NCBI GenBank assembly: GCA_035287145.1
Contig: DATEBX010000013.1
Location: forward strand, 1-32,174
From: Patescibacteria group bacterium
GTDB taxonomy: Bacteria; Patescibacteriota; UBA1384
DNA: 32,174 nt
Direction: 5' to 3'
A model generated the notes under the pieces. It was not told where the DNA came from, ran no database searches, and saw only the letters and a program-made list of their open reading frames with translations. Of this stretch, positions 8,474 through 25,786 are shown piece by piece. Both the position numbers and the translations under genes were made by a program. Positions within the stretch are counted from its first letter, which is position 1. Each line of letters opens with the position of its first letter.

Positions 8474-8518
8474 GTCATCCTGAGCGACCAAAGTATTCCG
8501 AGGGAGTCGAACGGATCC
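8474..8518 (+). repeat. Intergenic repeat D2 (gtcatcctgagcgacc...gtcgaacggatcc)
   Basis: Near-duplicate of 601-642. Starts 11 nt after the permease stop codon. Confidence 0.8.
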
Positions 8519-8546
8519 CCATTACCACCGCGTAGGTGGTAATGGG
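8517..8546 (+). repeat. H-family hairpin H6 (CCATTACCACC-gcgta-GGTGGTAATGG)
   Basis: 11-bp perfect stem. The loop and stem share the CACC-nCGTA-GGTG motif with hairpins at 13274, 13345, 14577 and 23002. Confidence 0.75.
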
Positions 8547-8566
8547 TTGATGAGATACAAAAGGGA

Positions 8567-8588
8567 AGCCCGCCGGAAGCGGCGGGCT
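8567..8588 (-). terminator. Terminator hairpin for the minus-strand sigma gene (between convergent genes)
   Basis: agcccgcc/ggcgggct is an 8-bp GC stem. On the minus strand it is followed by tcccttttgt. Confidence 0.6.
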
Positions 8589-8631
8589 GGTACACGTGCG
8601 TGGTGAACACGGGGCGCGGTTCGGTGCGGCA

Positions 8632-9285
8632 CTAGTTGCCGATTACGGCCATAGCTCCGGTGCGAATTTTCTCTATCTTGCGACGGACGCGGCAAAGGGC
8701 GTTGTCGACAGACTTTGGGGTGGAGCCCTGTTCTTCCGCAATCTCTTGGTATGATTTGCCCTTGGAGCGACCGGTGAAGGCGGCCCATTCAATTTGAGAA
8801 AAGCTACGTCGGAGCAGTGCTCGCAACTGGCGGTTTGCTTCGCGAGTTATGAGTGACTGTTCGGGGTCGGGAACTACTTTGTCAGCGAAGATGTCAACTC
8901 GCGGCTCATCATCGTCGCGGGGTCTTTCGTCGAGCGAGGAGGCGTAGATATGCGGCCCCTGCTTCTTGCCGTTTCCCGTCTTGACTGCGCTGATCATCTG
9001 CCGCTTGATGCAGATGTTGGCGAAGGTGCGGAACGAGCAGCCGCGGTCAGGACGGAAATCACGGATGGCCTTGAAGAGGCCAATCATGCCCTCCTGAATC
9101 ATGTCGTCGCGGTCGGCGCCATGGAGGAAGTAGGAGCGGGACTTGAACAGCACGACCGACTTGTACTTCTGGAGCAGGCGATCTATAGCTACCCCATCGC
9201 CATCTTGGGCAAGAAGGACAACGCGCTCATCGGGTCTCCGACTATAGCTTGTTTGCTCACGTTTGTTTGGTAGAGCTTGTCCCAT
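8632..9285 (-). CDS. RNA polymerase sigma factor, SigH (Spo0H)-like sigma-70 family member
   Basis: Strong by-eye match to Bacillus SigH region 2: KYKSVVLFKSRSYFLHGADRDDMIQEGMIGLFKAIRDFRPDRGCSFRTFANICIKRQMISAVK. Region 4: SYQEIAEEQGSTPKSVDNALCRVRRKIEK. GGAGG lies 11 nt upstream of the ATG. GC3-rich codon usage. Confidence 0.85.
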   Translation of the reverse strand: MGQALPNKREQTSYSRRPDERVVLLAQDGDGVAIDRLLQKYKSVVLFKSRSYFLHGADRDDMIQEGMIGLFKAIRDFRPDRGCSFRTFANICIKRQMISAVKTGNGKKQGPHIYASSLDERPRDDDEPRVDIFADKVVPDPEQSLITREANRQLRALLRRSFSQIEWAAFTGRSKGKSYQEIAEEQGSTPKSVDNALCRVRRKIEKIRTGAMAVIGN

Positions 9286-9422
9286 GGTCTATTTCGCCTC
9301 CTTATCAATGAGCCGTGAATGCGATCTACGCCTACCATAGCAAAGGGCTGGATTTTGAGCAAGAAATATGGTAAAAATAGGGTGTTGGTGCCGAACCGAT
9401 TGTGTTTTTGTTATTTGAACAC

Positions 9423-9498
9423 GCACCCGTAGCTCAACGGTTAGAGCACTTGGTTTACATCCAAGGGGTTGTCTGTTCGAATCAGACCGGGTGCACCA
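9423..9498 (+). tRNA. tRNA-Val (anticodon TAC), CCA encoded
   Basis: Acceptor gcacccg/cgggtgc, D-arm gctc-aacggtta-gagc, anticodon stem cttgg/ccaag with loop ttTACat, T-arm gtctg-ttcgaat-cagac, then ACCA. Confidence 0.9.
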
Positions 9499-9592
9499 AG
9501 TAAAATTACTTCCTGCAAAACGAATTACATTCTGTTATTGCAGGAGCGTAACCACTTGGCGCAGCCATATAAGGAAGTAATTTTACGCAGTC
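9499..9592 (+). repeat. tRNA-3'-linked structured repeat T1 (candidate small RNA)
   Basis: Starts immediately after the CCA of tRNA-Val. Nested helices: gtaaaattacttcc (9500-9513) with ggaagtaattttac (9573-9586), cctgcaa with ttgcagg, and aacgaat-tac-attc(t)gtt. Direct repeat of 9863-9959. Confidence 0.75.
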
Positions 9593-9670
9593 GCGTGGCG
9601 AACGAAGTGAGTTTTACGCGACATTTCGTAACTTTGAGATTTGATTTTTGCATTTTGATTTATATGTATG

Positions 9671-9774
9671 TCTGAGTAGCTCAGTGGTATCCTCCTTCGT
9701 AAAATCTCTTGCAGTATTCAAATTATTGAAATCTGCAAATAGATTTTACTTCGGACGGACAGGGAGCAGAGGAC
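9671..9774 (+). pseudogene. tRNA-Phe 5'-half pseudo-copy interrupted by a 74-nt nested hairpin
   Basis: 9674-9689 (gagtagctcagtggta) and 9764-9774 (gagcagaggac) are identical to consecutive segments of tRNA-Phe (9792-9818). They are separated by a 74-nt insert (9690-9763). There is no anticodon loop, T-arm or 3' acceptor. Confidence 0.6.
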
Positions 9775-9787
9775 ACCAAAAGGATTT

Positions 9788-9862
9788 GCTGGAGTAGCTC
9801 AGTGGTAGAGCAGAGGACTGAAAATCCTCGTGTCGTGAGTTCGATTCTCACCTCCAGCACCA
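9788..9862 (+). tRNA. tRNA-Phe (anticodon GAA), CCA encoded
   Basis: Acceptor gctggag/ctccagc, D-arm gctc-agtggta-gagc, anticodon stem gagga/tcctc with loop ctGAAaa, T-arm gtgag-ttcgatt-ctcac, then ACCA. Confidence 0.9.
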
Positions 9863-9959
9863 AGTAAAATTACTTCCTGCAAAACGAACTACGTTCTGTT
9901 ATTGCAGGAGCGTAACCACTTGGCACAGCCACATAATAAGGAAGTAATTTTACGCAGTC
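9863..9959 (+). repeat. tRNA-3'-linked structured repeat T2 (candidate small RNA)
   Basis: Starts immediately after the CCA of tRNA-Phe. Same nested helices as T1. The innermost helix closes with C9889-G9893 where T1 has T9525-A9529. Confidence 0.75.
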
Positions 9960-10059
9960 CCGAGACGACGCTTCTTAAATAACAGGATGTAATCCGTTTT
10001 TAAGAAAGGAGTTTTTCGGGACAACACTTGAATCACACTCCCCATCCAACAATATCCCA

Positions 10060-10485
10060 ATGCCTCTCGATTTCACGAAACTTACCCAAATTAGCTACCT
10101 CACGGAACAGCCGCCGGCGAGCGTGGCTTATTTCTGGCCAATAGTTATTATCCTGGCCGCCGCGCTGGCAGTTTCCCTGATTTGTTGGCGCCTCGCCCGC
10201 CGCCAGCCGTCGAAAGACGTGCCGCAATATTACATACTTATAAATCTAACGCGTTGGTTGAGTATTCCGTCTCTCCTTGGTTTAATCTTGCTATTTTTCC
10301 GAAATCAAGGTATTGTATATCTTTCATGGCGCCTGTGGTTTGTTATGCTCGCATTAGTTTGGCTGGGCGCCATGGTTTGGCTCGCAGGGTACGCGATTTT
10401 CAAATATCCCAAAGAGATTCGTACCCATAATTTACGCGAATTAAAAAATAAGTATATTCCCCAACCCAAGAAATCTGGAGGTTAG
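10060..10485 (+). CDS. Hypothetical integral membrane protein
   Basis: 141 aa with 3-4 hydrophobic segments. First gene of an apparent operon with rpsA. No recognisable family motif. Confidence 0.55.
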   Translation: MPLDFTKLTQISYLTEQPPASVAYFWPIVIILAAALAVSLICWRLARRQPSKDVPQYYILINLTRWLSIPSLLGLILLFFRNQGIVYLSWRLWFVMLALVWLGAMVWLAGYAIFKYPKEIRTHNLRELKNKYIPQPKKSGG

Positions 10486-10486
10486 C

Positions 10487-11680
10487 TTGGCAACCAAAAC
10501 AGTAAAAACCGGCCCGGTATCCATGGACGTATTGGCCGAAGAACAAGGCGAAAAATTAGTTCCCTACCACGCCGGCGGCACGGTGGAAGTGACGGTCCTG
10601 GAAGTTACCCCGCGCAAATTGCTCGTTGACGTGGCAGGTATGGCCCAAGGAATTGTGCCCGAAAGAGAGTTCTCTTTTGATACCATCGAACTGAAGCCGG
10701 GTGATAAGGTCAACGCCTATGTCCTATCAATGGAGAATGAAGCCGGCCAGGTTATTTTATCGCTCAAACGCGCCGACCGTGAAACCTTGTGGCGAGTGCT
10801 GCAGGAGAAGCAAGAGGCCGGTGAGGTTATGACTGTTAAAGTGGCGGGCGCCAACCGCGGCGGACTTTTGGTGGAGTCGGGCGGTCTCGACGGTTTCATT
10901 CCGGTCTCCCAACTAGCGCCGGAACACTATCCGCGCGTTGAGGGCGGCAGCGGCATGGAAATCGCCCGCCGTTTGCAAACCTACATCGGGCAAAACTTCA
11001 AAGTTAAAGTGTTGAACGTCGACAAGCAGGCCAGCAAATTAATTTTTTCCGAAAAGATGACCCAAGGGCTCATGAAAGATACCGCGGTTGATACCGTCAA
11101 ACTGGGCGACGTACTCGACGGAACGGTGACCGGCATTACCACATTTGGCATATTTGTTAACGCCGGCGGCATCGAGGGGCTGGTTCACATCTCGGAAATT
11201 TCTTGGGACAGGGTTGCCAATATCAATACAATGTTCGAAGTTGGCCAGGCGGTTAAAGTCAAAGTCATACAAATTGACGGCAACCGCGTTTCCTTTAGTA
11301 TTAAGCGGCTCGAAGCGGACCCATGGCTTAAGGCCTATGAGGAGATGAAGCCGGGGACCATCATCAAGGGTGAGGTAACGCGGGTAACCGATTTCGGCGC
11401 TTTTGTCAAAATTACCGACCAGATTGCCGGCCTGTGCCACCTCTCGCAAATGGGCGAAAACGTGGTCGATCCAACTAAAGTTATGGCTGTGGGCGAAACA
11501 CACAACTTTAAAATCGTCAGCATCGAACCCTCCACCCACCGCTGTAGCCTCCAGCTTATAACTGGTGAGGATGCGGCGGCGAGTGCGAAGCCGGCTCAGA
11601 AAAAAGTGGTTCCGGCAAAAGGAGTTAAAGAAGAAAAAGTTGCCGGAGAGTCTAAAATCTCCCAAAAAACAAAACCATGA
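10487..11680 (+). CDS. rpsA: 30S ribosomal protein S1 (four S1 domains)
   Basis: Repeated S1/OB modules (e.g. GDVLDGTVTGITTFGIFVNAGGIEGLVHISEISW, GTIIKGEVTRVTDFGAFVKI...GLCHLSQM). TTG start at 10487 preceded by GGAGG at 10477-10481. Confidence 0.85.
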   Translation: MATKTVKTGPVSMDVLAEEQGEKLVPYHAGGTVEVTVLEVTPRKLLVDVAGMAQGIVPEREFSFDTIELKPGDKVNAYVLSMENEAGQVILSLKRADRETLWRVLQEKQEAGEVMTVKVAGANRGGLLVESGGLDGFIPVSQLAPEHYPRVEGGSGMEIARRLQTYIGQNFKVKVLNVDKQASKLIFSEKMTQGLMKDTAVDTVKLGDVLDGTVTGITTFGIFVNAGGIEGLVHISEISWDRVANINTMFEVGQAVKVKVIQIDGNRVSFSIKRLEADPWLKAYEEMKPGTIIKGEVTRVTDFGAFVKITDQIAGLCHLSQMGENVVDPTKVMAVGETHNFKIVSIEPSTHRCSLQLITGEDAAASAKPAQKKVVPAKGVKEEKVAGESKISQKTKP

Positions 11681-12153
11681 CCCTCAAGTGCAAAAACAAA
11701 AAATTAGTCGGCATAACTAAAAAAGCGACCATTGAATTTGGCGACGACCTAGCTATCAACGATATTAAAATTCCCGGTCCCGGCGAGTACGAAATCGGCG
11801 GTTTACTGGTAACAGCGCCGGAAGAAAACGTTTATTCCCTGCGCACCGAAAATGATCTCCATGTTGTTTTTTGGCACGCTCAAAAAAATAAGATATCTGC
11901 GACCAGTGACGAACTGGGTAATATCGATGTCTTAATCCTATCGCTTGGCGATGATCCCAAATCGGTGAGTGGTGTAGTAGCAGTCTTGAACGAGCTTGAG
12001 CCCGCCAAAATAATCTTGTCCACCCCAAATATTAAAGAAGCGTTTATTAAAGAAGAACAAATTCCGACCGAGACGGTGGAGAGCTGGAAAGTAGTGCCGG
12101 TCGTCGGTGAAAATAACCGCCACTTGATTCTTCTGCCATGCTCAAACGAGTAG
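11677..12153 (+). CDS. Hypothetical protein (possibly a degenerate MBL-fold/COG2220-like protein)
   Basis: ATGA overlap with rpsA. The GPGEYEIGG motif recalls UPF0173/MBL-fold hydrolases, but no HxHxDH motif is present. Confidence 0.5.
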   Translation: MTLKCKNKKLVGITKKATIEFGDDLAINDIKIPGPGEYEIGGLLVTAPEENVYSLRTENDLHVVFWHAQKNKISATSDELGNIDVLILSLGDDPKSVSGVVAVLNELEPAKIILSTPNIKEAFIKEEQIPTETVESWKVVPVVGENNRHLILLPCSNE

Positions 12154-13097
12154 CAGCTTGGCTCGGCCAAGCTTCTCGCGTCCTCATTATTTTTCACGAA
12201 TCGCCTGATGGCGACGGCATTGCCTCGTCTTTGGCGCTGGCCCACGTTCTTTGGGAGCGGGGCAAAAAAGTTAGTTTGGTCTGCCGCGATCCGGTGCCGC
12301 CGGTTTTTAATTTTCTGCCTAAGGTCGATACTATTGCCACTGATTTTATCGTGGCGGATTATGATGTCATTTGCACCGTTGATTGCGGTGATGCCAAGAG
12401 GACCGGTTTTCCCGACCGTATTAGAAAATTCGCGCGGACCAAAAAACGACTCATTAACATTGACCATCACCTTAAAAACGACCTCCATAAAATTGCCAAT
12501 ATCAACCTTGTCGACAGCCAGGCCGCCGCTTCGGCGGAACTGGTATATCAAATCATAAACGCGCTGGGCGCGCGCATTGACAAACATCTTGCCACCCTCC
12601 TTCTGACTGGTCTTTTTACCGACACCGGCGGCTTTCAGCACTCCAATACGACACCGCGTGTTTTTAAGCTGGCGGCAGAATTGCTGGCTAGGGGCGGGCA
12701 GTTGCGCAAGGTTTCAAAAAATGTCTCGTCAAGCAAGCCCCTAACCACTCTCCAGCTCTGGGGCATAGCCCTTGAGCGTCTGTGGCGTACCGAGTCGGGG
12801 ATTGTGGCGTCGCTTATAACACAAGAAGATTTGAGATGCGTCGGCGCGGTGGCGGACGACATTGCCGGCGCGGTCAATGTCTTAAATTCTATTCCCCAAA
12901 CCAAGCTCGCCATCTTGCTGCAGGAGGAGGCAAATGGTAAAATTAAAGCCAGTTTGCGGACCGAGGAGGAGGGGGTAAATGTGGCGGCGCTGGCGGCCTA
13001 CTTCGGCGGCGGTGGCCACCGCAAGGCCGCCGGTTTTACGGTTGACGGCAAACTGGCGCGTTCTTCCGGCGGCGTTTGGTGCATCGCCCTGTCATAA
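12138..13097 (+). CDS. nrnA: DHH/DHHA1 phosphoesterase, NrnA-type oligoribonuclease / pAp phosphatase
   Basis: Motifs FHESPDGDGIAS, TVDCGD, NIDHHLKN (DHH), GGGGHRKAAGF (DHHA1). Confidence 0.85.
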   Translation: MLKRVAAWLGQASRVLIIFHESPDGDGIASSLALAHVLWERGKKVSLVCRDPVPPVFNFLPKVDTIATDFIVADYDVICTVDCGDAKRTGFPDRIRKFARTKKRLINIDHHLKNDLHKIANINLVDSQAAASAELVYQIINALGARIDKHLATLLLTGLFTDTGGFQHSNTTPRVFKLAAELLARGGQLRKVSKNVSSSKPLTTLQLWGIALERLWRTESGIVASLITQEDLRCVGAVADDIAGAVNVLNSIPQTKLAILLQEEANGKIKASLRTEEEGVNVAALAAYFGGGGHRKAAGFTVDGKLARSSGGVWCIALS

Positions 13098-13106
13098 GAA
13101 AATCAG

Positions 13107-13160
13107 GTGTCATTGCGAGGAGCCCCGACCCACTGGGGCCGTGGGCGACGAAGCAATCTA
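13107..13160 (+). repeat. C-family repeat C1 (gtgtcattgcgagg...gacgaagcaatcta)
   Basis: GTCATTGC starts 11 nt after the nrnA stop codon. Terminal stem ATTGC/GCAAT and inner gcccc...ggggc hairpin. Related to copies at 24297, 4432 (-) and 25961 (-). Confidence 0.85.
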
Positions 13161-13172
13161 GTATTAGTTAGT

Positions 13173-13259
13173 GGCGCGGTGGTGGAATTGGTATACACGA
13201 AGGACTTAAAATTCTTTGGCCGCAAGGCCATGTGGGTTCGACTCCCACCCGCGCCACCA
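13173..13259 (+). tRNA. tRNA-Leu (anticodon TAA), CCA encoded
   Basis: Acceptor ggcgcgg/ccgcgcc, anticodon stem aagga/ttctt (one G-U pair) with loop ctTAAaa, long variable arm tggccgcaaggccat, T-arm gtggg-ttcgact-cccac, then ACCA. Confidence 0.85.
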
Positions 13260-13273
13260 TAAATCAACCCAAT

Positions 13274-13300
13274 CGCACCCCGTAGGTGTGTTTATGGTTT
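13274..13300 (+). repeat. H-family hairpin H5 (cgcacc-ccgta-ggtgtg + tttatggttt), probable tRNA terminator
   Basis: 6-bp stem including one G-U pair. Shares the CGTAGGTG motif and the T-rich ...GGTTT tail with H1 and H4. Confidence 0.55.
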
Positions 13301-13333
13301 GTAATAATAGGATAATAGGATACAACTTCGCAT

Positions 13334-13376
13334 CTTAACCTGTTAAAGTACACCTCGTAGGTGTCCTTTTTGGTTT
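13334..13376 (+). repeat. H-family repeat H1 (cttaacctgttaaagtacacctcgtaggtgtcctttttggtt)
   Basis: 13345-13375 is identical to 23002-23032, and 13334-13357 is identical to 14501-14524. Hairpin ACACCT-cgt-AGGTGT followed by CCTTTTT. Confidence 0.9.
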
Positions 13377-13402
13377 GAGAAAGGTGGCGAGGGTAATCAT
13401 AT

Positions 13403-13431
13403 TTGACCCATTTCTCTTAAAGATGTAATAT
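13403..13431 (+). promoter_or_regulatory. sigma70-type promoter (TTGACC-17-TAATAT) of the DHOD-like gene
   Basis: TTGACC at 13403-13408, 17-nt spacer, TAATAT at 13426-13431. Confidence 0.55.
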
Positions 13432-13452
13432 TTTTAGCAGTGGGCGGGTTGC

Positions 13453-14445
13453 TTGGCTTGTCACGCACCTTACAAACTTGGAAAGGCGGCGGTTCGCGTG
13501 GAAGGACCCTCCGATGGCTATGGCCTCAAATACGTTGTCCCCAACGATGCGTGGGGCATACAACTTTTCAATGGCCACATCCTTGAATACGTAGCCGCCA
13601 GCGGCGCGTTGGGCTTTGACGGCAAGGCCTGGCCGTGGGAACGGCTTTTGTGCTGGCTTGGACTCATCGATATCGACTCCGACTTTTTCACCGTGGTGAC
13701 CAAGACCCTAACCCGTCAGCCGACTGAAGGCAATCTTCGGTGGTACGACCCCTGGTTCTGTGTGCGGCCAATTCGTGACGGGTTTGTCAATGCGGTAGGC
13801 CTTACCAACCCCGGCATTGATTGGTGGTGCCGGAAAATCGGTCCGTCGGTCAAAAAGGAAAAGCTTTCTCTGGTTGCTTCGATCTTTGGCGAGCCGGAGG
13901 AGCTTGGGGAAATGGCAACAATGCTAAACAGCTTCGAGTTAGTCGGGCTGGAAATCAACGCTTCGTGCCCCAATACCAAGGATGACGGTTTTCAGGACAC
14001 TGAGAGAGTTGTGGCCGCTTGCCAGGCGGTTAAGGCGAATTCCAGCTTGCCGCTGATACTCAAGCTCTCTGTTGTTCACGATGTCGCGCGCATCGCAAGG
14101 CAAGTTAAGGGTCTCGTCGAGGCATTCTCCATCAACAGTGTGCCCTGGGCTGTGGCCTTCCCTGATCACTGGAGCCCTCTCGAACGGCTTGGCGGCGGCG
14201 GGGTTTTCGGCAAGACCGCTCAGCGTTTAACTTGGCCGATGGTCGGTAAGATCGCCCGCGATACCAATGTGCCGGTTATCGGCCCTAGCGTCTGGGATTA
14301 TGATGATATCGAGCGGTTGAGGACGCTTGGCGCTCGAGCCATTAGCTTCGGCTCTCTCTTTCTGCGCCACCCCGGGCGCCCCACACAGTATGTGATGTGG
14401 GACGTCCGTGCCCGTATGGCCGCCAAGACAAACCCCCATACCTAG
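13453..14445 (+). CDS. Dihydroorotate dehydrogenase (class 1)-like flavoenzyme, divergent
   Basis: By-eye colinearity with PyrD type 1: AASGALGFDG, VVTKTLTRQPTEGN, NAVGLTNPGID, LVASIFG, GLEINASCPNT (Cys base), PLILKLS. The usual IG(M/G)GG motif reads IGPSVW. Start uncertain (TTG 13453 or in-frame GTG 13498). Confidence 0.7.
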   Translation: MACHAPYKLGKAAVRVEGPSDGYGLKYVVPNDAWGIQLFNGHILEYVAASGALGFDGKAWPWERLLCWLGLIDIDSDFFTVVTKTLTRQPTEGNLRWYDPWFCVRPIRDGFVNAVGLTNPGIDWWCRKIGPSVKKEKLSLVASIFGEPEELGEMATMLNSFELVGLEINASCPNTKDDGFQDTERVVAACQAVKANSSLPLILKLSVVHDVARIARQVKGLVEAFSINSVPWAVAFPDHWSPLERLGGGGVFGKTAQRLTWPMVGKIARDTNVPVIGPSVWDYDDIERLRTLGARAISFGSLFLRHPGRPTQYVMWDVRARMAAKTNPHT

Positions 14446-14472
14446 CGGCTCTCGTCCCTTGAGAGAGCCGCT
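14444..14472 (+). terminator. Stem-loop terminator overlapping the DHOD-like stop codon
   Basis: 10-bp stem agcggctctc/gagagccgct, 9-nt loop, followed by a weak T tract (atttgatt). Confidence 0.55.
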
Positions 14473-14500
14473 ATTTGATTCAGATTCAGATACAAACAAG

Positions 14501-14570
14501 CTTAACCTGTTAAAGTACACCTCGCCCGCCTGCGGAAGCTTAATTTTAAGCAGTACGGGCAAGTAGGTGG
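14501..14570 (+). repeat. H-family repeat H2, hairpin loop interrupted by a 39-nt insert
   Basis: 14501-14524 equals the H1 5' half up to ...gtacacctcg. 14525-14563 is a 39-nt self-complementary insert (gcccg/cgggc, gcttaa/ttaagc). The repeat resumes at taggtgg (14564-14570). Confidence 0.75.
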
Positions 14571-14576
14571 CAGAAT

Positions 14577-14611
14577 AACCGCACGTACACCTACGAGGTG
14601 TACGTGCGGTT
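14577..14611. repeat. H-family hairpin H3: 16-bp perfect palindrome
   Basis: aaccgcacgtacacct-acg-aggtgtacgtgcggtt. The core is the reverse complement of the H1 core (acacctacgaggtgtac). Confidence 0.9.
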
Positions 14612-14754
14612 CATATAACTGGTTCGCCTGATTTTGATAGATACTTACATCTCGTGGCCCGCGCGGTTCGGTGAATTCCCCAAGAGGCAATTCAGGAATT
14701 TTGTGCACCGCACAATCGAGACAAGATTCGCATGCATTCAAGTGATATATTGAT

Positions 14755-14806
14755 ATCGGCGAAAATCTGCGTTATCGGGTGGGTTTGATCGGCGCCAATC
14801 TGCGTT
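14755..14806 (+). promoter_or_regulatory. Two 19-bp direct repeats upstream of the SLT gene (candidate operator)
   Basis: atcggcgaaaatctgcgtt (14755-14773) and atcggcgccaatctgcgtt (14788-14806). 17/19 identical, with a 33-bp period. Confidence 0.35.
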
Positions 14807-14818
14807 TATTGTAATTTG

Positions 14819-14846
14819 TTGCCCATTTGTGTGGTTCTGATAAAAT
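14819..14846 (+). promoter_or_regulatory. Candidate promoter with extended -10 (TTGCCC-16-TGaTAAAAT)
   Basis: TTGCCC at 14819-14824, TG at 14838-14839, TAAAAT at 14841-14846, upstream of the ATG at 14892. Confidence 0.4.
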
Positions 14847-14891
14847 GTGGGTGAAAGCTTGCAATAAGAGGCGACAAAACTAACCAAGCTA

Positions 14892-15554
14892 ATGCGCAAG
14901 AGAATCAATCTTATATTATTTTTGGTCGGGTTAGGCCTGATCGGGGTTTTGGCGGCTTTTAAGTTGCCGGGCATTTTGGCGGACCAACTTTATCCCCTGC
15001 GCTACGTTAAAGAAATTCGCGAATGCTCTGCGCCTTACAATCTCGACGAAGCGTTGGTGGCGGCTTTCATTAAACAGGAGTCGAACTTTAACCCAAAAGC
15101 GGTTTCACGCGCCGGCGCTTCAGGTTTGGGACAGATTATGCCGGCCACCGCCGCCGGCATCGCCCGCAAATTGGGGATACCGAGCTACGATATTTTTGAC
15201 CCTAAAACCAATGTTTGCTTTACGACATTTTACATCGCCGGTATGCTCGGGCGCTACAACGGCGACCTGGTCGCGGCGGCCGCGGCCTATAACGGCGGCG
15301 CGGCGGTGGGCGATCGCGTGGTGGCGTCCCGCAATGCCGCCATTCCCGGCGAGACCTCGCGCTATATTGTCGCCGTACCTCGGCTTTACGAGGTTTATAA
15401 AGAAATTTATGGCATCAAACTTAAAAGTGTGCCCGATGATTACAGCGGGTCGATGGCGGGAGGCGAGGGCTATAAAACATTTGTCCAAAAACAGCCGCCC
15501 AAAAAATTATGGGATGTGATTATCAATGACTTGGTCGGGAAATATATCAAGTAG
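14892..15554 (+). CDS. Lytic transglycosylase, SLT domain (GH23), membrane-anchored
   Basis: N-terminal TM (INLILFLVGLGLIGVLAAF). SLT motifs AFIKQESNFNPKAVSRAGASGLGQIMPATA and AAAAYNGG. Confidence 0.85.
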   Translation: MRKRINLILFLVGLGLIGVLAAFKLPGILADQLYPLRYVKEIRECSAPYNLDEALVAAFIKQESNFNPKAVSRAGASGLGQIMPATAAGIARKLGIPSYDIFDPKTNVCFTTFYIAGMLGRYNGDLVAAAAAYNGGAAVGDRVVASRNAAIPGETSRYIVAVPRLYEVYKEIYGIKLKSVPDDYSGSMAGGEGYKTFVQKQPPKKLWDVIINDLVGKYIK

Positions 15555-17298: not shown

Positions 17299-17331
17299 TG
17301 GTAATATTAACTTGAATCAGGAGGGGAATTA

Positions 17332-18585: not shown

Positions 18586-18587
18586 CT

Positions 18588-20324: not shown

Positions 20325-20332
20325 GCGGCGTT

Positions 20333-20716
20333 ATGATCTCGCAAGGAATTATCCTCGCACTCGACTTGGGCGCCAAGCAAACCGGACTCGCGCTCTTTAA
20401 GGAAGGTTTTGTGGTGGGGCGCGGCGTGGTCGGCGGCTGGCTCGAGTGGCAACAATTATCAGCCCAACTGTCACGCGTCATCGCGGAAGAGCAAGTCGCG
20501 CGTATCGTCGTCGGCGTGCCGCACTCGCCAAGCGGCGACCAAGCGCGGCAGTATGAAACCTACATTGCCGTCATTAATAAGAAGTTTGCCTTGCCCGTGT
20601 CAACGGTAGATGAAACATTAACTTCGGTTGCCGCGCGGGAGCAGGGCGCTTCCACCGATGACCACGAGGGGGCCGCCAAAATAATATTGGAGGATTACCT
20701 TGCCCAAAATCGGTAA
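20333..20716 (+). CDS. ruvX: YqgF/RuvX-family putative pre-16S rRNA nuclease / Holliday junction resolvase-like protein
   Basis: The N-terminal ILALDLGAKQTGLAL motif and the 127-aa size are typical of YqgF. Confidence 0.75.
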   Translation: MISQGIILALDLGAKQTGLALFKEGFVVGRGVVGGWLEWQQLSAQLSRVIAEEQVARIVVGVPHSPSGDQARQYETYIAVINKKFALPVSTVDETLTSVAAREQGASTDDHEGAAKIILEDYLAQNR

Positions 20717-21656
20717 GAAGGTAATACTGGGCGCCGTATTGGTATTGCTCGCAATGCTAATGATTGGCGCGGGCTACGGCTGGTGGCGCTGGCAAGCGCG
20801 GCCGGCGGGCAAGAGCGGCACCATCGTGGAAATTACCGCCGATAATTTTTACGACCTCCGGCTCCAGCTTTCGAGCAAGAAACTTATTGGCTCCGGCCTC
20901 TACTTCGCGGCCATCTGGGGGGATAAAAAACAACTGCCGGAGAGGGGCTATTATTCTTTGGGCGGCACCGATGCTAAAGAGTTAAAAAAACTGTTAATGG
21001 CCGGTCCCAACATTGTCAAACTGACCATACCCGAAGGTTTTTCGGCGGGACAAATCGCCGCGCGCTTGGTCGGCGAGGGTTTGCCGGGTGAGGACTTTCT
21101 TGCACTCGCTTTGCCGCTTGAAGGCAAACTGTTTCCCGAAACGTATTTTTTGCGCAAAGCGTCAAACGCCCAGCAAATTATTGACAAACTGACGGCGACA
21201 TATGACGACAAAACCACTGAACTGACATTGTCGAATAATGATTTGATATTGGCATCCATCATCGAACGCGAAGCTAAAAAGGACGAAGAACGCCCGAAAA
21301 TTGCCGCCCTTTACCTTAATCGACTAGCACAAGGCATGAAGCTCGAAGCCGACCCGACGGTGCAGTACGGCCGTGATTTAACTTCGCTTAAAGCCGACGA
21401 CTTAGTAAATGTAAAATTGTGGCAGCCGCTCGCCTCGGGCGACACCCACGCCATTGTGTCAAAGTATAATACTTATGCCTCGGCCGGCCTGCCGCCCGGT
21501 CCCATTTGTAATCCCGGAATCAAGAGCTTGAAAGCGGCAAAAAATCCCGAAGCGGGTATTACCGCCCTCTATTTCTTTCACGACGCTGGCGGTGTTGTCC
21601 ATTTTACGAACTCTTTCACGGAGCACCAAGCCGCTATCCAAGAATTCGGCCTATAA
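20700..21656 (+). CDS. mltG: Endolytic murein transglycosylase MltG (YceG-like)
   Basis: TTG start with GGAGGA 5 nt upstream. N-terminal TM. YceG motifs LEGKLFPETYF, ASIIEREA, LEADPTVQYG, YNTYASAGLPPGPICNPG. Confidence 0.85.
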   Translation: MPKIGKKVILGAVLVLLAMLMIGAGYGWWRWQARPAGKSGTIVEITADNFYDLRLQLSSKKLIGSGLYFAAIWGDKKQLPERGYYSLGGTDAKELKKLLMAGPNIVKLTIPEGFSAGQIAARLVGEGLPGEDFLALALPLEGKLFPETYFLRKASNAQQIIDKLTATYDDKTTELTLSNNDLILASIIEREAKKDEERPKIAALYLNRLAQGMKLEADPTVQYGRDLTSLKADDLVNVKLWQPLASGDTHAIVSKYNTYASAGLPPGPICNPGIKSLKAAKNPEAGITALYFFHDAGGVVHFTNSFTEHQAAIQEFGL

Positions 21657-21661
21657 ATTTA

Positions 21662-21690
21662 TTGACACCAATGCACTTCCCTGTTATTAT
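21662..21690 (+). promoter_or_regulatory. Near-consensus sigma70 promoter (TTGACA-17-TATTAT)
   Basis: TTGACA at 21662-21667, 17-nt spacer, TATTAT at 21685-21690. Begins 6 nt after the mltG stop codon. Confidence 0.6.
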
Positions 21691-21860
21691 TAACCTTCCC
21701 TCTGCGTGCTACTACGCAGGAGGTGCTACTTAACAAACAATTCATTTTTGGCTTTTGGGAGCAAGCCAGAAACAGAAAGGGAGCGAAGAACACAGAGCAC
21801 AGAGCACCAATTACTACCCCGGCTTCCGCCGGAAAACCCGCCGTACAAGGAGTGAGTGTA

Positions 21861-22895
21861 GTGGAACGTCTACGTCTAGAAGGGCGACCGGTAACACTCT
21901 TCACCGGCCAATGGGCCGATCTCCCTCTCGACCAGTTGGCCGCAAAGGCCGCAAACTGGGGGTATTGTGGCCTTGAGCTGGCCTGCTGGGGCGATCACTT
22001 TGACGTTGTCAAGGCTCTTGCGGAGCCCGGCTATGTCAAAGCTCACCGCAGGTTGCTCGATAGTCACGGCCTTAGGTGCTGGGCGATCGGGGCGCATCTT
22101 GTCGGCCAGGCAGTTTGTGACCCCATCGACGCGCGTCACCGGGGGATCCTGCCACCCGAGGTGTGGTATAATGGCGATCCTGAAGGTGTTCGGGAGCGGG
22201 CAGCCAAGCGCATGAAGGACACGGCTCGCGCCGCCGCGGCCCTCGGTGTTACCCAGGTGAACGGCTTCACCGGCTCGAGCATCTGGCACATGCTCTACTC
22301 GTTCCCTCCGAACGACCCGGAAGAGATCGAGCGCGGCTACCAGGACTTTGCCGAGCGCTGGGGGCCGATCATTGACGTCTTCGATGCGGAGGGTGTCCGC
22401 TTCGGGCTCGAAGTGCACCCGACGGAGATCGCCTATGACTTCGTCACGACCTGCAAGACGCTCGTTGCCATCGACAACCGTGCGGGCTTCGGAATCAACC
22501 TCGACCCGAGCCACTTCGCTCACCAGTCCCTGGACCCTGCGCTGTTCGCACTCGAGTTCGCTGACCGCATCTACCACGTACACGTCAAGGACTCGTGCAA
22601 GGACCTCGATGGGCGCAAGTCGATTCTAGGTGGTCATCTCAATTTCGGCCACCTGCAGCGTGGCTGGGACTTTGTCTCACCAGGCCACGGCGACGTGGAC
22701 TTCGAGGGGCTCTTCCGCGCACTCAACCGGATTGGCTACGCGGGTCCGCTCTCGGTCGAGTGGGAGGACTCTGGCATGGACCGTGAGTGGGGGGCACAAG
22801 ATGCACTTGCGTTCGTGGGCCGAACGGACTTCGCGCCGTCCAGCGTCGCCTTCGACGCGGCTTTCGACCAGAAAGAACAGCCGACCGACCAGTAG
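21861..22895 (+). CDS. Sugar phosphate isomerase/epimerase, xylose-isomerase-like TIM barrel (AP endonuclease 2 superfamily)
   Basis: [70 protein letters not shown] are typical of this family. The ORF is open from 21723, but GTG 21861 follows AAGGAG (21847-21852), and the GC3-rich part begins there. Strongly GC3-rich. Confidence 0.8.
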
Positions 22896-22950
22896 CGCCC
22901 TATCGCTGGTCAAGACCCACAGTTTCTGGCGGATAAAACCGCTGGCGCAT

Positions 22951-22984
22951 ACGACCTCTGCCATCTTGGCGGGGGTCGTTTTTT
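22951..22984 (+). terminator. Intrinsic terminator of the TIM-barrel gene
   Basis: 12-bp stem (22951-22962 with 22968-22979, two G-U pairs), 5-nt loop, TTTTT at 22980-22984. Confidence 0.75.
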
Positions 22985-23001
22985 AGTAGAATGAACCCGC
23001 A

Positions 23002-23032
23002 AAAGTACACCTCGTAGGTGTCCTTTTTGGTT
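23002..23032 (+). repeat. H-family repeat H4
   Basis: aaagtacacctcgtaggtgtcctttttggtt is identical to 13345-13375. Confidence 0.9.
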
Positions 23033-23058
23033 AAAAACGCCCCTATCTGGAGTGCTGG

Positions 23059-23138
23059 ATTCGAGTGTTGATTCGCCCGCCTAGACTCGGCGAGGCTGGT
23101 TAGGCGAGGCTGGCGACTAATTCGCGCGAATTCGAGTG
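23059..23138 (+). promoter_or_regulatory. Two ATTCGAGTG boxes plus a 14-bp tandem (ggcgaggctgg-tta-ggcgaggctgg) upstream of mreB
   Basis: Exact 9-mers at 23059-23067 and 23130-23138. The tandem lies at 23089-23113. Confidence 0.3.
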
Positions 23139-23154
23139 ATGGTGTGCTCTTGTC

Positions 23155-23184
23155 TTGTCGCCACGCCTGCGCTACGGTTATAAT
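23155..23184 (+). promoter_or_regulatory. Candidate mreB promoter (TTGTCG-18-TATAAT)
   Basis: TATAAT at 23179-23184 and TTGTCG at 23155-23160. The ATG at 23240 is about 50 nt downstream. Confidence 0.45.
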
Positions 23185-23239
23185 AGGGTTTCGGGGGAGG
23201 GCTTTTCTTTGTGGCATAAGCATACAAGGGCACTAAATT

Positions 23240-24289
23240 ATGGTATTTAACAGATTTTTTCGCACATTTAGCCACGATATCGGCATTGACTTGGGTACGG
23301 CCAATACTCTTGTGTACGTTCGTGGCCGCGGCGTGGTCATCAACGAACCCTCCGTAGTTGCTATTAATAAGAATACTAAACAAATTCTTGCCATCGGCGA
23401 GGAAGCCAAGGAAATGGTCGGACGGACGCCGGCGCACATTGTCGCTGTTCGCCCGCTGGTCGACGGCGTGGTGAGCGATTTTGAAGTTACCGAACAGCTT
23501 CTCAAATATTTTATCAGCCGTGTCCACCACGAACGTTTTGTTTTTTTCCCGCGCCCGAGAGTTGTCATCGGCATCCCCTACGGCGTAACTGAAGTTGAAC
23601 GGCGGGCAGTCGAGGAAGCCACCACCAACGCCGGCGCGCGCGAAGTTTATTTAATAGAAGAGCCGATGGCGGCGGCAATTGGCGCTAGATTGGCGGTGCA
23701 GGACGCGAGAGGAACGATGATTGTTGATATCGGCGGCGGCACCACCGAAGTGGCGGTCATATCGCTCGGCGGCATTGTTTCCAGCCGCTCCCTGCGCATA
23801 GCCGGCGATGAGCTGAACCAGGACATCATTAACTTTGCCCGCGACCAATACAACCTGCTTTTAGGAGAGCGCACGGCGGAGGAAATCAAGATTGCTGTCG
23901 GTTCGGCATTACCGCTCGGCAAACCGCTAACTACCCCCATGCGCGGCCGCGACCTCATCACCGGTTTGCCTAAAGAAATTATTATTGACGACGAGCAAAT
24001 CCGCCGCGCTATGGGCAAATCGGTACATTCTTTAGTGGATGCCATGCGCGTGACCATCGAAGAATCGCCGCCGGAGCTGGTGGCGGATATTCTAACGCAG
24101 GGGATTATGTTGGCCGGCGGCGGCGCGCTCCTGCGCGGCTTCGACCGTTTGGTGGCGGATGCGACCGGTATGAAAGTTCACATTGCCGACGATCCCCTGA
24201 CTTGCGTCGTCCGCGGCACCGGCGTGGTCCTGGAGGATTTGGACGACCTGCGCGGCGTCCTCCTCCCCACCGAATATGTCCGCCCCTAG
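23240..24289 (+). CDS. mreB: Rod shape-determining protein MreB
   Basis: DIGIDLGTANTLVYV, VIGIPYGVTEVERRA, IVDIGGGTTEVAVISLGG, MLAGGGALLRGFD. Confidence 0.95.
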   Translation: MVFNRFFRTFSHDIGIDLGTANTLVYVRGRGVVINEPSVVAINKNTKQILAIGEEAKEMVGRTPAHIVAVRPLVDGVVSDFEVTEQLLKYFISRVHHERFVFFPRPRVVIGIPYGVTEVERRAVEEATTNAGAREVYLIEEPMAAAIGARLAVQDARGTMIVDIGGGTTEVAVISLGGIVSSRSLRIAGDELNQDIINFARDQYNLLLGERTAEEIKIAVGSALPLGKPLTTPMRGRDLITGLPKEIIIDDEQIRRAMGKSVHSLVDAMRVTIEESPPELVADILTQGIMLAGGGALLRGFDRLVADATGMKVHIADDPLTCVVRGTGVVLEDLDDLRGVLLPTEYVRP

Positions 24290-24296
24290 GTATCCA

Positions 24297-24337
24297 GCGT
24301 CATTGCGAGGGGCCCCATTGGGGCCCGAAGCAATCTC
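24297..24337 (+). repeat. C-family repeat C2 (gcgtcattgcgaggggccccattggggcccgaagcaatctc)
   Basis: GTCATTGC starts 9 nt after the mreB stop codon. Stem ATTGC/GCAAT and inner ggcccc-att-ggggcc. Confidence 0.85.
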
Positions 24338-24444
24338 TTAACGTTCACGCTAAAGCGTGGCCTACGGGAATCGTAGAACAAGCTTCCCTGTCCAGCGAAG
24401 CTCGAAGAGCGAAGTTGGAAACTTGTCGGAATATGCCATCCAGG

Positions 24445-24473
24445 TTGACAAACCTGTTGCAATCTGCTATCAT
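24445..24473 (+). promoter_or_regulatory. Near-consensus sigma70 promoter (TTGACA-17-TATCAT) of the orphan gene
   Basis: TTGACA at 24445-24450, 17-nt spacer, TATCAT at 24468-24473. Confidence 0.6.
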
Positions 24474-24560
24474 CTGGTTGTTCAGATGTCCCTTGATAAC
24501 CAGGTCCCGCTTGGCGGGACATAGATGCTGGCGAGCATATACGCAAGGAGGCGACAGCTG

Positions 24561-25481
24561 ATGACCAGTCAGACTGCGTCAAAGGTAACAGATAGACAGA
24601 TACTGGAAATGAAGAGGCAGTTGGAGGTTGTGGCCTACCGCTACCTCTCCCTCGAGAGTGCACAGATGATCATCGAGCGGGGCGACGTATTCCAGTCCCG
24701 GCTTGGCGATCTCTTACGCGAACTCGGTGGCATGTTCCCGAATCAGTACGAGAGTGAGCGCGTTGACCGGACCCTCGACAACCCCGCGGGCTGGTCAGTT
24801 CCGTCCTTCGACGAACAGCGTGCGCGCACCGCCAAACTGTTCCCCGATCTGGTTTTGCCCGAGACCCCCACACGGGACATTGTTGTCCCCAACGGTTGGG
24901 ACGGCGTCTGGTGGTTCCCGCCTAAGATTGCGGCCATCGGCCGCATCTGCGGAGTAGCCGACTGCTACATCGCGGACTATGGCACAGTCGTGAAGCACCT
25001 GCTCACCCTCATCAAGAAGCAGCGTGCCTTCATCAACTACCGCACCCTAAACGGCGACCAACTGACGGCGGAGTACGTCCGCATCAATGAGAACGTGCGC
25101 GGCCGCATCCAGATGCTGGAGGCCGCCACCGGCGGCGACTTCCTGCCGCCAATGCCGATAACATTCGGCCAATTCTACGGGGGCTTCTCGCCCCGCAATG
25201 CCCGCGAAACGGCCATCCGTCGGCAGGAGCTACCGTTCTGCACTGCCCAGGTCGGCTCGCTGCTGGCCGTCATGCCTGAACGCCTCGCCGCTCACGACCT
25301 CTGGATTGATATCCCCGCCGATGAGTACCACTGGGGCGGTGACAACCTCTGGGCGCACTCGCTGTATTTCTACTTCGGTGACGGCGGGTTGATGATGTTC
25401 GATTCCGGTGGTGCTGCCGATGCCGCTGGCCGCTGTGGCTCGGCTGTCGGTCTCCCGGGAGTGTCGGAGTTCGCCTCCTAG
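24561..25481 (+). CDS. Hypothetical protein, 306 aa, no recognisable family; GC3-rich foreign-looking gene between mreB and mreC
   Basis: AAGGAGG at 24545-24551, then ATG at 24561 (the ORF is open from 24525). Coherent GC3 codon bias (TTC, AAG, GAC, TAC). Own promoter and terminator. Confidence 0.7.
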   Translation: MTSQTASKVTDRQILEMKRQLEVVAYRYLSLESAQMIIERGDVFQSRLGDLLRELGGMFPNQYESERVDRTLDNPAGWSVPSFDEQRARTAKLFPDLVLPETPTRDIVVPNGWDGVWWFPPKIAAIGRICGVADCYIADYGTVVKHLLTLIKKQRAFINYRTLNGDQLTAEYVRINENVRGRIQMLEAATGGDFLPPMPITFGQFYGGFSPRNARETAIRRQELPFCTAQVGSLLAVMPERLAAHDLWIDIPADEYHWGGDNLWAHSLYFYFGDGGLMMFDSGGAADAAGRCGSAVGLPGVSEFAS

Positions 25482-25518
25482 GCGACTCGGTACTTTCGGT
25501 CTTTCGACCTCTCGACAT

Positions 25519-25552
25519 GGGGGCGAGCTTTGCTCGCCCCCGAAACTTTTTT
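25519..25552 (+). terminator. Intrinsic terminator of the orphan gene
   Basis: 10-bp stem gggggcgagc/gctcgccccc with loop ttt, then gaaacTTTTTT. Confidence 0.7.
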
Positions 25553-25620
25553 ACAAAATATCAAAATTGTCTTTATAAAAAATACTCGCCAGAACCTTTA
25601 TAAAAAGGGCTCATGACAAA

Positions 25621-25658
25621 GGGGACGGTTCTCTTTTACCCTTAACATTCGGCTTTTT
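25621..25658 (+). repeat. R-family repeat, solo copy R4
   Basis: ggggacggttctcttttacccttaacattcggcttttt. The first 22 nt are identical to R1 and R3. No tandem units. Confidence 0.85.
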
Positions 25659-25686
25659 GAATTAAACTCCACACAGCTTACATATT

Positions 25687-25786
25687 CACCCCACCAACCC
25701 CGCCTCGACCGACTTCGAGTCGGGCGGGCTCCCCCTCTTAGTAAGCCTGTCCCGAGTCACACCGAGGGAGGGGAGCTGGTGGGGTG
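25687..25786 (+). other. About 100-nt three-helix structured element (candidate ncRNA or structured repeat)
   Basis: Closing helix caccccacca (25687-25696) with tggtggggtg (25777-25786), 10 bp perfect. Internal helices cccgcc(tcga)/(tcga..)ggcggg and gctccccctc/gagggaggggagc. Confidence 0.4.

Follow-up and report, generated by a model that had tools for sequence, protein, structure and literature searches.

Probable separate acquisitions of four foreign genes, differing in origin and age, within a conserved division and translation backbone of a Patescibacteria genome

Where do single genes of atypical codon usage come from when they stand alone among the housekeeping genes of a Patescibacteria genome, and did they arrive together? 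We addressed this question for a contig of 32,174 nucleotides (DATEBX010000013.1, positions 1 to 32,174, forward strand) from assembly GCA_035287145.1 of a Patescibacteria group bacterium; this whole stretch is called the window in the following. An original prediction from the sequence had described single-gene cassettes with a high G+C content at third codon positions (GC3), and had interpreted them as recent acquisitions from one donor of higher G+C content, inserted at repeat-marked sites. The follow-up analysis leads us, with a probability of roughly 0.8, to another reading, in which a conserved division and translation backbone is interrupted by four independently acquired foreign genes that differ in origin and age, and in which the repeats are not insertion marks. 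Each of the foreign genes would lie alone in an intergenic junction and end in its own hairpin.

The four genes are given below with their GC3 and with the fraction of G/C-ending codons in the nine two-fold codon families, the z-score referring to the latter.

8632-9285, minus strand: SigH-like sigma-70 family factor (Pfam Sigma70_r2, r4_2); GC3 0.654, two-fold fraction 0.66, z 5.4
13498-14445 (alternative TTG start at 13453), plus strand: DHO_dh-like TIM barrel, 315 aa (Pfam DHO_dh, E 5.7e-14); GC3 0.660, two-fold fraction 0.59, z 4.0
21861-22895, plus strand: AP_endonuc_2 TIM barrel, xylose-isomerase-like, of the sugar phosphate isomerase/epimerase family (Pfam, E 1.4e-43), called the TIM-barrel gene below; GC3 0.747, two-fold fraction 0.77, z 8.0
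24561-25481, plus strand: hyp306, a putative orphan variable (target) protein gene of a diversity-generating retroelement (DGR), 306 aa, between mreB and mreC; GC3 0.771, two-fold fraction 0.79, z 8.5

The background consisted of 23 window genes, with the four candidates and the gene of a REP-associated tyrosine transposase (RAYT; REP, repetitive extragenic palindrome) left out. These genes have a GC3 of 0.578 +/- 0.045 and a two-fold fraction of 0.416 +/- 0.044. The codon usage of all four candidates thus lies beyond the resident range (z 4.0-8.5 against the 23 window genes), as expected of transferred genes, and the TIM-barrel gene and hyp306 also have a higher G+C content at the first and second codon positions (GC1, GC2). 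If GC3 were the only measure, neither the sigma factor nor the DHO_dh-like gene would stand out from MreB (0.642) and RuvX (0.654); it is their two-fold codon choice alone that sets them apart. The proposed GC3-rich class therefore holds for these four genes by their two-fold fraction, but it had also included the RAYT, which is AT-rich (GC3 0.38, z -4.4). Hence, of the two minus-strand genes assigned to the class, the sigma factor belongs there and the RAYT is an outlier in the opposite direction. The direction of the bias had been seen correctly; however, its description as overwhelmingly G/C, with C-ending codons nearly exclusive, went too far, with GAC/GAT counts of 24/7 and 13/7 and a TAC/TAT count of 4/4 in the TIM-barrel gene.

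Next, we compared the gene order with that of relatives. The window DNA recurs, collinear and 99.7-99.95% identical, in five contigs from different metagenome assemblies and samples, and the same arrangement in independently assembled contigs shows that it is not an assembly artefact. About a dozen longer loci of more distant Patescibacteria, obtained by a metagenome scan with YceG and taken from among the matches listed, have in common the backbone S1-hyp158-DHH-SLT-AlaRS-FtsA-hyp578-RuvX-YceG-MreB-MreC-PBP2-GreA-SerRS-HPF; their MreB is 70-76% identical to that of the window. No homolog of any of the four candidate genes was found in 80 related loci among the matches listed. YceG and MreB are separated by less than 130 nt in four loci (L137, L138, L123, L121), mreB and mreC are adjacent in all distant loci as well as in the nearest GTDB matches (L001, L002), and the adjacency of DHH and AlaRS in relatives likewise represents an empty site. 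In other relatives, the YceG-MreB junction holds inserts of 1-3 kb, with open reading frames (ORFs) of atypical composition in L146 and L139. In its variability this junction resembles a recurrent insertion site.

The search with the sigma factor also led to a sister species (L097, L098), whose core proteins are 85-97% identical to those of the window. Outside this species pair, MreB is 66-76% identical to anything found, the best GTDB genome match reaching 66%, and for the core proteins S1 and AlaRS identity is no higher than 40-48% even in comparison with other Patescibacteria. The search for empty sites, proposed as a check of the original prediction, therefore gave a divided answer: the YceG-MreB, MreB-MreC and DHH-AlaRS junctions are closed in relatives, but the closest sister carries the sigma factor and the DHO_dh-like gene. 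The sister's sigma factor (L097) is 79% identical at the same site and has kept the two-fold bias (0.62); its DHO_dh-like gene, also at the same site, is 88.6% identical with a two-fold fraction of 0.70. Around the latter, the block conserved with the sister extends over 13400-14480, from the -35 element to the hairpin. Since both genes stand at the same sites in the two sister species, and were found in sister contigs from two sources, both acquisitions are older than that speciation and not recent.

Having placed these two entries before the split, we looked into the origin of each gene. Beyond the sister, the identity of sigma homologs declines gradually (70, 65, 63% and so on). At 60-62%, homologs occur in a conserved IMPDH-sigma-GH172 context in genomes of 64% and 69% GC, one cluster lying on a contig of 4.2 Mb; a 59% match is named Armatimonadia and Firmicutes SigH reaches about 48%. 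The NCBIfam SigH models score 192 bits on the sigma factor, under their cut-offs, and a viral scan gave only matches of 43-45%. An identity of 60-62% to genomes of 64-69% GC, compared with 40-48% for S1 and AlaRS among Patescibacteria, is the affinity to distant taxa expected of a transferred gene. The apparent source is an Armatimonadota-like lineage of 64-69% GC, from which the gene would have entered before the sister split. For the DHO_dh-like gene the picture differs, as no donor was found. Its family is small, with best library representatives at 54-58% identity, and the viral scan gave no match. An identity as bona fide PyrD was rejected, as the NCBIfam PyrD models reach 98 bits against a cut-off of 269. 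By its shared position, this gene is likewise placed before the sister split.

The TIM-barrel gene appears to have a different history. A protein search gave at least 8000 matches, and the best 120 are all 78-83% identical, one of them being named Gaiellaceae. The three homologs examined (L095, L179, L183) lie on contigs of 70-72% GC and have a GC3 of 0.92-0.97, and two of the three have neighbours of the kind seen in free-living high-GC bacteria. At the DNA level, the window gene is 78-79% identical to these three over positions 21885-22861, and the similarity ends at the coding sequence. The nearest solved structure is PDB 2ZDS (E 3e-135), which we take to be a Streptomyces coelicolor protein, while no PHROGs family match and no phage link were found. 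The gene is thus 78-83% identical to genomes of about 70% GC, compared with 66-76% for MreB to relatives, and by these similarities it is assigned to an Actinomycetota-like donor of about 70% GC. Its arrival after the split from the sister is suggested by indirect evidence, the protein collection searched including a sister contig expected to cover the YceG-MreB junction. With a GC3 lowered from 0.93 to 0.75, against a resident value of 0.58, the gene would be about halfway from donor to resident composition. The predicted promoter at 21662-21690 lies outside the DNA homology to the high-GC homologs; because this homology stops at the coding sequence, the near-consensus promoter may have been gained or captured in or near its present place. 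Overall, the proposal of horizontal acquisition was borne out by the empty sites in relatives, by the 79% DNA identity of the TIM-barrel gene to genomes of about 70% GC and by the nearest sigma homologs at 64-69% GC.

The fourth gene, hyp306, gave no Pfam, NCBIfam or PHROG match, and only 17 homologs were found in 5.8 billion proteins. It is 62-79% identical to P0002, P0005 and P0006, all of which carry pairs of a variable region (VR) and a template region (TR), and the C-terminus is hypervariable in the family alignment. In L094 (79% identical), the target gene is followed by a 130-nt repeat of its 3' end, by bAvd and by an RVT_1 reverse transcriptase (RT). L086 and L088 (62% identical) have this layout too, there within prophage-like elements that also encode a terminase, Ltp-like lipoproteins and a large serine recombinase. 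Mismatches between VR and TR fall at TR adenines in 24/24, 20/20 and 18/18 cases (L094, L086, L088); as every difference is at a TR adenine, the signature of DGRs, the hyp306 family consists of DGR variable proteins. The corresponding elements of the window are:

24441-25615, plus strand: full hyp306 module, homologous to the DGR cassettes of relatives (blastn 77-80% to L094, L086, L088, L091)
25329-25466, plus strand: VR equivalent of hyp306, by comparison with the TRs of relatives

No TR, Avd or RT of hyp306 was found in the window, and no RVT_1 ORF in the 32 kb. Compared with the TRs of relatives, the VR equivalent differs at 22-24 TR adenines and at 13-16 other positions, and it has 3 nt inserted. 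The protein and its VR are identical in five metagenome strains from different samples, in which no ongoing VR diversification was seen, and hyp306 looks like a frozen orphan. The AlphaFold2 model (pLDDT 67.6, pTM 0.67) had no Foldseek match with E <1 in PDB or BFVD. This moderate model thus speaks neither for nor against a C-type lectin (or Ig-like) fold that would display the VR, as in DGR variable proteins.

The DNA homology of the module comprises the promoter, the ribosome-binding site, the coding sequence, the stop codon, a GC-rich hairpin and a trailer of about 70 nt. A separate piece with the promoter is 83% identical (blastn), and the promoter is homologous to TTGACAAACCCGTT...TGCTATTAT in L094, L086 and L088. 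The terminator stem shows compensatory changes across relatives (GAGC/GCTC vs AAGC/GCTT vs CCC/GGG). Since this homology spans promoter to terminator, both signals are part of the transferred module. Orphan modules of the hyp306 type occur in two further chromosomal contexts: that of L091 ends exactly where the TR would start, and that of L184 lies beside RpoA, S9 and a phosphoribosyltransferase. The most likely course of events is that hyp306 was the target-gene end of a DGR from Patescibacteria prophages or viruses and was transferred as a whole promoter-gene-terminator module; loss of TR, Avd and RT would then have left a frozen variant, strongly expressed if the predicted promoter is a guide. 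Such orphan targets may be what remained after integrated phage DNA had decayed.

Two further features of these cassettes were observed. Most hyp306 relatives have a conserved leader of about 170 nt between promoter and ribosome-binding site, with the stem GAAGCCCC...GGGGCTTC, and the leader in the window (24474-24560) is shorter and different. In addition, bAvd lies on the opposite strand between TR and RT, an unusual layout, in L094 (1716-1997, minus strand) and L096 (9407-9751, minus strand), where it overlaps the RT start. The leaders are located as follows:

L094, 190-366: hyp306-family leader
L086, 4430-4605: hyp306-family leader
L088, 9811-10000: hyp306-family leader
L184, 3100-3285: hyp306-family leader

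The window also holds a trace of a second gene of this kind:

4004-4123, plus strand: 3'-terminal fragment, with the VR region, of a second DGR-target-like gene (tblastn)

Its translation, ending in ...DGGFVDVPYFYFDDGKVKFCTGWVADPSECYGAASGFL, matches the C-terminal 40 residues of the P0014-P0017 subfamily (P0015, P0017, P0014) at 46-51% identity, with E down to 5e-7. The DNA is 81% identical to the TR of an IMG/VR virus DGR in L096, the one distant DGR-bearing virus from the viral scan with the hyp306 family, which has a target, a VR, a TR with 24/24 adenine-specific mismatches, bAvd and RT. By this similarity, we regard the fragment as the stump of a second DGR target gene; it lies near the RAYT between copies of the REP family, and there is a hairpin at 4217-4247. 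The segment 3990-4250, earlier called GC-rich and without a reading frame, has a GC content of only 57.5%, and its core is explained by this fragment. A role as the missing TR of hyp306 was considered and rejected, the fragment belonging to the other subfamily and having no nucleotide similarity to the hyp306 VR.

In this target family, the gene is always GC-richer than its own RT, Avd and surroundings, with GC3 higher by 0.3-0.5:

L086, 4606-5523: target, GC3 0.86, own RT 0.37
L088, 10001-10918: target, GC3 0.83, own RT 0.38
L094, 367-1287: target, GC3 0.83, own RT 0.40
L096, 7896-8849: target, GC3 0.61, own RT 0.30
L091, 4843-5760: orphan target, GC3 0.81, locus GC 0.43
L184, 3286-4197: orphan target, GC3 0.74, locus GC 0.46

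A GC excess of the target as a general trait of DGRs was rejected, as target GC3 lies within about 0.1 of RT and other genes in six control DGR phages taken from the public phage collection. Four-fold sites of the first subfamily are 61-82% identical, compared with a random expectation of 40%, which may reflect slow amelioration from a very GC-rich ancestor. The second subfamily (30% identical) has the same GC excess. Judged by these comparisons, the GC3 signal of hyp306 is a property of the gene family rather than of a known donor. The family occurs inside active DGRs and as orphans at at least three unrelated chromosomal sites, and it has neither a Pfam model nor a fold match. A further thought, which we consider rather unlikely, is that hyp306 belongs to an undescribed DGR variable-protein family specific to Patescibacteria and their viruses, a self-contained module kept GC-rich instead of one owed to a recent high-GC donor. 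If this were true, the GC-richness of the family would suggest that selection or a mutational process linked to this type of DGR is at work, e.g. avoidance of adenine on the coding strand.

As a next step, we investigated the signals around the four genes. The predicted promoters and terminators are:

13403-13431, plus strand: TTGACC-17-TAATAT, an ordinary 9/12 match, weak promoter-like site ahead of the DHO_dh-like gene
21662-21690, plus strand: TTGACA-17-TATTAT with TG, 11/12, predicted promoter ahead of the TIM-barrel gene
24445-24473, plus strand: TTGACA-17-TATCAT with TG, 11/12, predicted promoter of hyp306
8588-8567, minus strand: predicted terminator after the sigma factor, 9-bp stem with 8 GC pairs, -18.8 kcal/mol, z -3.0
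14443-14473, plus strand: hairpin right after the stop codon of the DHO_dh-like gene, -22.5 kcal/mol, z -4.5, weak T tail
22951-22979, plus strand: predicted intrinsic terminator of the TIM-barrel gene, 13-bp stem with a TTTTT tail, -22.5 kcal/mol, z -4.7
25518-25542, plus strand: predicted terminator of the hyp306 module, GC-rich hairpin and T-run, -23 kcal/mol, z -5.9

The sites at 21662-21690 and 24445-24473 are the only two sigma-70-like matches of 11/12 (extended -10 with TG) in the whole 32 kb. Three promoters with 17-nt spacers had been proposed, and these two are well supported, but the third is an ordinary 9/12 match, the -35 element of which is conserved in the sister. For the sigma gene, the promoter scan gave no good match. 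All four candidates end in their own hairpin (-19 to -23 kcal/mol, z -3.0 to -5.9), including the three cassettes for which stem-loop terminators had been predicted; the strongest terminator candidate of the window is that at 25518-25542, followed by that at 22951-22979. The candidate units would thus be transcribed on their own, and the idea of autonomous monocistronic units can be kept for at least two of them, the TIM-barrel gene and hyp306 with their predicted signals, but less so for the DHO_dh-like gene with its weak promoter and the sigma gene with none found. The predicted terminator at 25518 would separate mreB from mreC, and no promoter-like site of at least 9/12 was found upstream of mreC. 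The roughly 340 nt between the nearest repeat copy and mreC (25669-26011) hold no ORF and show GC-rich long-range complementarity (around 25690-25790). A search against Rfam (gathering and E-value thresholds) found tRNAs only; neither this spacer nor the cassette leaders gave a match to a riboswitch or another known RNA.

Do the repeats, then, mark the sites of insertion? Three families and the transposase gene come into question:

3262-3915, minus strand: RAYT (Pfam Y1_Tnp, E 5e-18; NCBIfam REP_Tyr_transpos 76.1 bits, cut-off 80)
3247-3294, 3941-3982 (inverted), 4299-4346, 25621-25668 (plus strand): REP family
13337-13375 (plus strand), 13262-13300, 14504-14542 (partial), 14587-14601 (inverted core), 22994-23032: D3 family, hairpin ACACCTCGTAGGTGT with T-run
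24299-24336 (plus strand), 13109-13159 (plus strand), 4433-4472 (minus strand), 25966-25976 (core, minus strand): H family, hairpin-forming GTCATTGCGAG...CGAAGCAATCT

Each cassette does adjoin a member of a repeat family, as had been noted: D3, REP and H copies were all confirmed. One REP copy (25621-25668) stands directly after the end of the hyp306 module (25615), and one H copy (24299-24336) lies between mreB and this module, with an inverted core downstream of it. The RAYT is flanked by inverted REP copies (3247, 3941) and further REPs are intergenic, as is typical of a REP/RAYT system; one REP copy also lies beside the RAYT of the sister. However, the sister has the DHO_dh cassette without the D3 repeats that flank it in the window. 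The repeats therefore arrived later and are not insertion scars, so that the direct repeats at 13337 and 14504 were rejected in this role and the notion of repeat-marked insertion sites fails here. More probably, the repeats (REP mobilised by the resident RAYT, D3 and H) may be intergenic colonists that settled in the spacers created by the inserted units.

How do other explanations compare? The view that all cassettes are recent and derive from one higher-GC donor, possibly the host lineage of an episymbiont, through insertion at repeat-marked sites, gains from the common direction of the bias in the four genes and from the repeats that adjoin each cassette. It also gains from the Gaiellaceae (Actinomycetota) name and the Streptomyces-type PDB entry among TIM-barrel homologs; Actinomycetota are known hosts of some Patescibacteria. 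Still, we consider it improbable: the sigma factor and the DHO_dh-like gene predate the sister split, the DHO_dh cassette of the sister lacks the surrounding D3 repeats, the RAYT counted in the class is AT-rich, and the apparent sources differ gene by gene, being Actinomycetota-like for the TIM barrel, Armatimonadota-like for the sigma factor, a Patescibacteria prophage or virus for hyp306 and none found for the DHO_dh-like gene. Translational selection on native, very highly expressed genes could produce a preference for G/C-ending codons as well, as such genes commonly prefer C-ending codons in two-fold pyrimidine families, and the top two promoter matches and top two terminators of the window belong to the two genes with the strongest bias. 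This is very improbable, as the two-fold fraction is low in genes expected to be highly expressed (S1 0.46, GreA 0.41, HPF 0.39, MreB 0.46), RpoA and S9 in L184 are likewise without this bias, GC1 and GC2 are raised too, the TIM-barrel gene has 79% DNA identity to genomes of 70% GC, and relatives have the conserved backbone without any of the four genes.

Slightly less credible again is an ancestral presence of the genes with repeated loss in relatives, their composition being local heterogeneity. It would agree with the finding that the sister has the sigma factor and the DHO_dh-like gene in the same places, but loss would have to have occurred separately, at three junctions, in about a dozen relatives; it also leaves unexplained why high-GC organisms match the TIM-barrel gene at 78-83% identity although MreB reaches only 66-76% with any relative, and why homologs of hyp306 stand in a prophage and DGR context. 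Assembly chimeras or binning contamination, suggested by the atypical composition alone, can practically be dismissed in view of the five independently assembled, collinear contigs from different samples (99.7-99.95%) and of the sigma and DHO_dh-like genes in sister contigs from two sources. Several points weigh against the reading of four separate acquisitions itself. Donor assignments rest on best hits, contig GC and few source names, and the compositional background is limited to the 28 genes of the window and is not a genome-wide GC3 distribution. The best matches of the DHO_dh-like protein are not GC-rich in amino-acid composition, which leaves a high-GC donor unsupported, and none of the 17 hyp306 family members is a homolog from a high-GC genome, so that its GC-richness has no known donor. 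For the TIM-barrel protein the collection contains no match between 83% and 100%, for hyp306 none above 79%, and the absence of both genes from the sister is only indirect. Finally, the roles of promoters and terminators are predictions.

Single-gene transfers, islands and prophages have been documented in Patescibacteria (PMC12455944), and atypical GC has been described as a sign of DGR mobility, with GC-rich inverted repeats downstream of the VR (PMC5758913, PMC3240598). The candidate genes resemble ameliorating transferred genes in being atypical at all three codon positions, patchily distributed and nearer to distant taxa, with a GC3 between donor and recipient. In the framework of Lawrence and Ochman, transferred genes are reportedly recognised by atypical GC3 or codon usage and undergo amelioration. 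Unlike multi-gene islands, the insertions of the window consist of one gene each inside a conserved backbone, even in mreB-mreC, and two of them carry predicted near-consensus promoters and strong terminators. This recalls the phage moron, said by Hendrix and colleagues to be an autonomous promoter-gene-terminator unit of deviant GC between phage genes. The TIM-barrel gene and hyp306 fit this description as single genes of deviant composition, each between a predicted sigma-70-type promoter and a predicted intrinsic terminator of its own. Copies of the hyp306 module in relatives occupy the accessory region of prophages, beside integrase and Ltp-like genes. However, the units of the window lie between core chromosomal genes with no prophage around, the phage setting applies only to the hyp306 homologs L086 and L088, and the TIM-barrel gene has no phage link.

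The DGRs of the relatives resemble the Mtd/Brt/Avd-type DGR of Bordetella phage BPP-1 in their 3'-terminal VR of 130 nt, in a downstream TR at a distance of about 447 nt, in differences confined to adenines, and in the presence of bAvd, of an RVT_1 reverse transcriptase and, downstream of the VR, of a GC-rich inverted repeat. They depart from it in that bAvd is on the opposite strand and target GC3 is 0.3-0.5 above that of the own RT, unlike in six control DGR phages; hyp306 of the window has no TR, Avd or RT, is invariant among five strains and has a predicted fold that matches no PDB or BFVD structure. A known REP/RAYT system is recognisable in the Y1 transposase gene with flanking inverted copies of a repeat of about 40 nt and further intergenic copies, but it explains one repeat family near the cassettes and not the cassettes, and the RAYT is compositionally their opposite. 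Similarly, integron cassettes are single-gene mobile units inserted one after another, and they are typically promoterless, whereas the units of the window are scattered, not arrayed, and have their own predicted promoters. No integrase was found among the window ORFs, nor an imperfect inverted repeat of the attC type bounding all cassettes.

The window as a whole has a GC content of about 52% and contains, over 32 kb, compact housekeeping genes that are nearly all on the plus strand. In order, these are:

Part 1: M23 peptidase, Obg, PriA, RAYT (minus strand), SecG, SBP_bac_5 protein, tRNA-Leu x2
Part 2: ABC-2 transporter, SigH-like sigma factor (minus strand), tRNA-Val, tRNA-Phe, S1, DHH, tRNA-Leu
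Part 3: DHO_dh-like gene, SLT, AlaRS, FtsA, 578-aa protein, RuvX, YceG
Part 4: AP_endonuc_2 TIM barrel, MreB, hyp306, MreC, MreD, PBP2, GreA, SerRS, HPF

The SecG gene (4607-4831, plus strand, 74 aa) falls under the ORF length cut-off and is 98% identical to that of the sister; a promoter-like site of 10/12 with TG lies ahead of it (4569-4596). Both tRNA-Val and tRNA-Phe are followed by a repeated trailer of 105 nt (9468-9572, 9832-9936; 87% identical), and a 16-nt copy of the 5' end of tRNA-Phe stands between the trailers (9674-9689); these repeats may be the trace of a duplication or of integration at tRNA genes. The sister L097 has an insertion of its own at tRNA-Leu(taa) (5339-6062), where an AT-rich HNH-endonuclease gene (5551-6021, GC 0.37) is accompanied by duplicated pieces of the tRNA, which is intact in the window. 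Besides that, the sister carries a block of radical-SAM, DUF6504 and IMS (DinB-like polymerase) genes beside its RAYT (L097, 15193-18044). This block is without a counterpart in the window at 4009-4489, where the stump of the DGR target and extra REP and H repeats are found instead.

In other Patescibacteria loci too, junctions of this backbone hold isolated genes whose composition deviates strongly, two of them in the YceG-MreB gap:

L138, 3801-4475: deviant gene, GC3 0.79 against a median of 0.41
L133, 5545-6324, minus strand: cold-shock-domain gene, GC3 0.70 against 0.37
L088, 4510-4938: deviant gene
L091, 13134-13835: deviant gene
L146, 11390-12043: deviant gene
L139, 10830-11951: deviant gene

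Altogether, the finding is a well-resolved new example of known processes, mostly of expected gene transfer. For annotation, it shows that adjacency of repeats is no evidence of an insertion mechanism and that DNA described as GC-rich and frameless can be the relic of a variable-protein gene. The window offers a clean gene-by-gene view of how single foreign genes enter a reduced Patescibacteria genome, with apparent donors that range from high-GC free-living bacteria to the phages of the organism itself and with insertion ages that would bracket a speciation. It also suggests that a DGR target gene can outlive its retroelement machinery as an autonomous orphan, which, by its predicted promoter, is probably strongly expressed.

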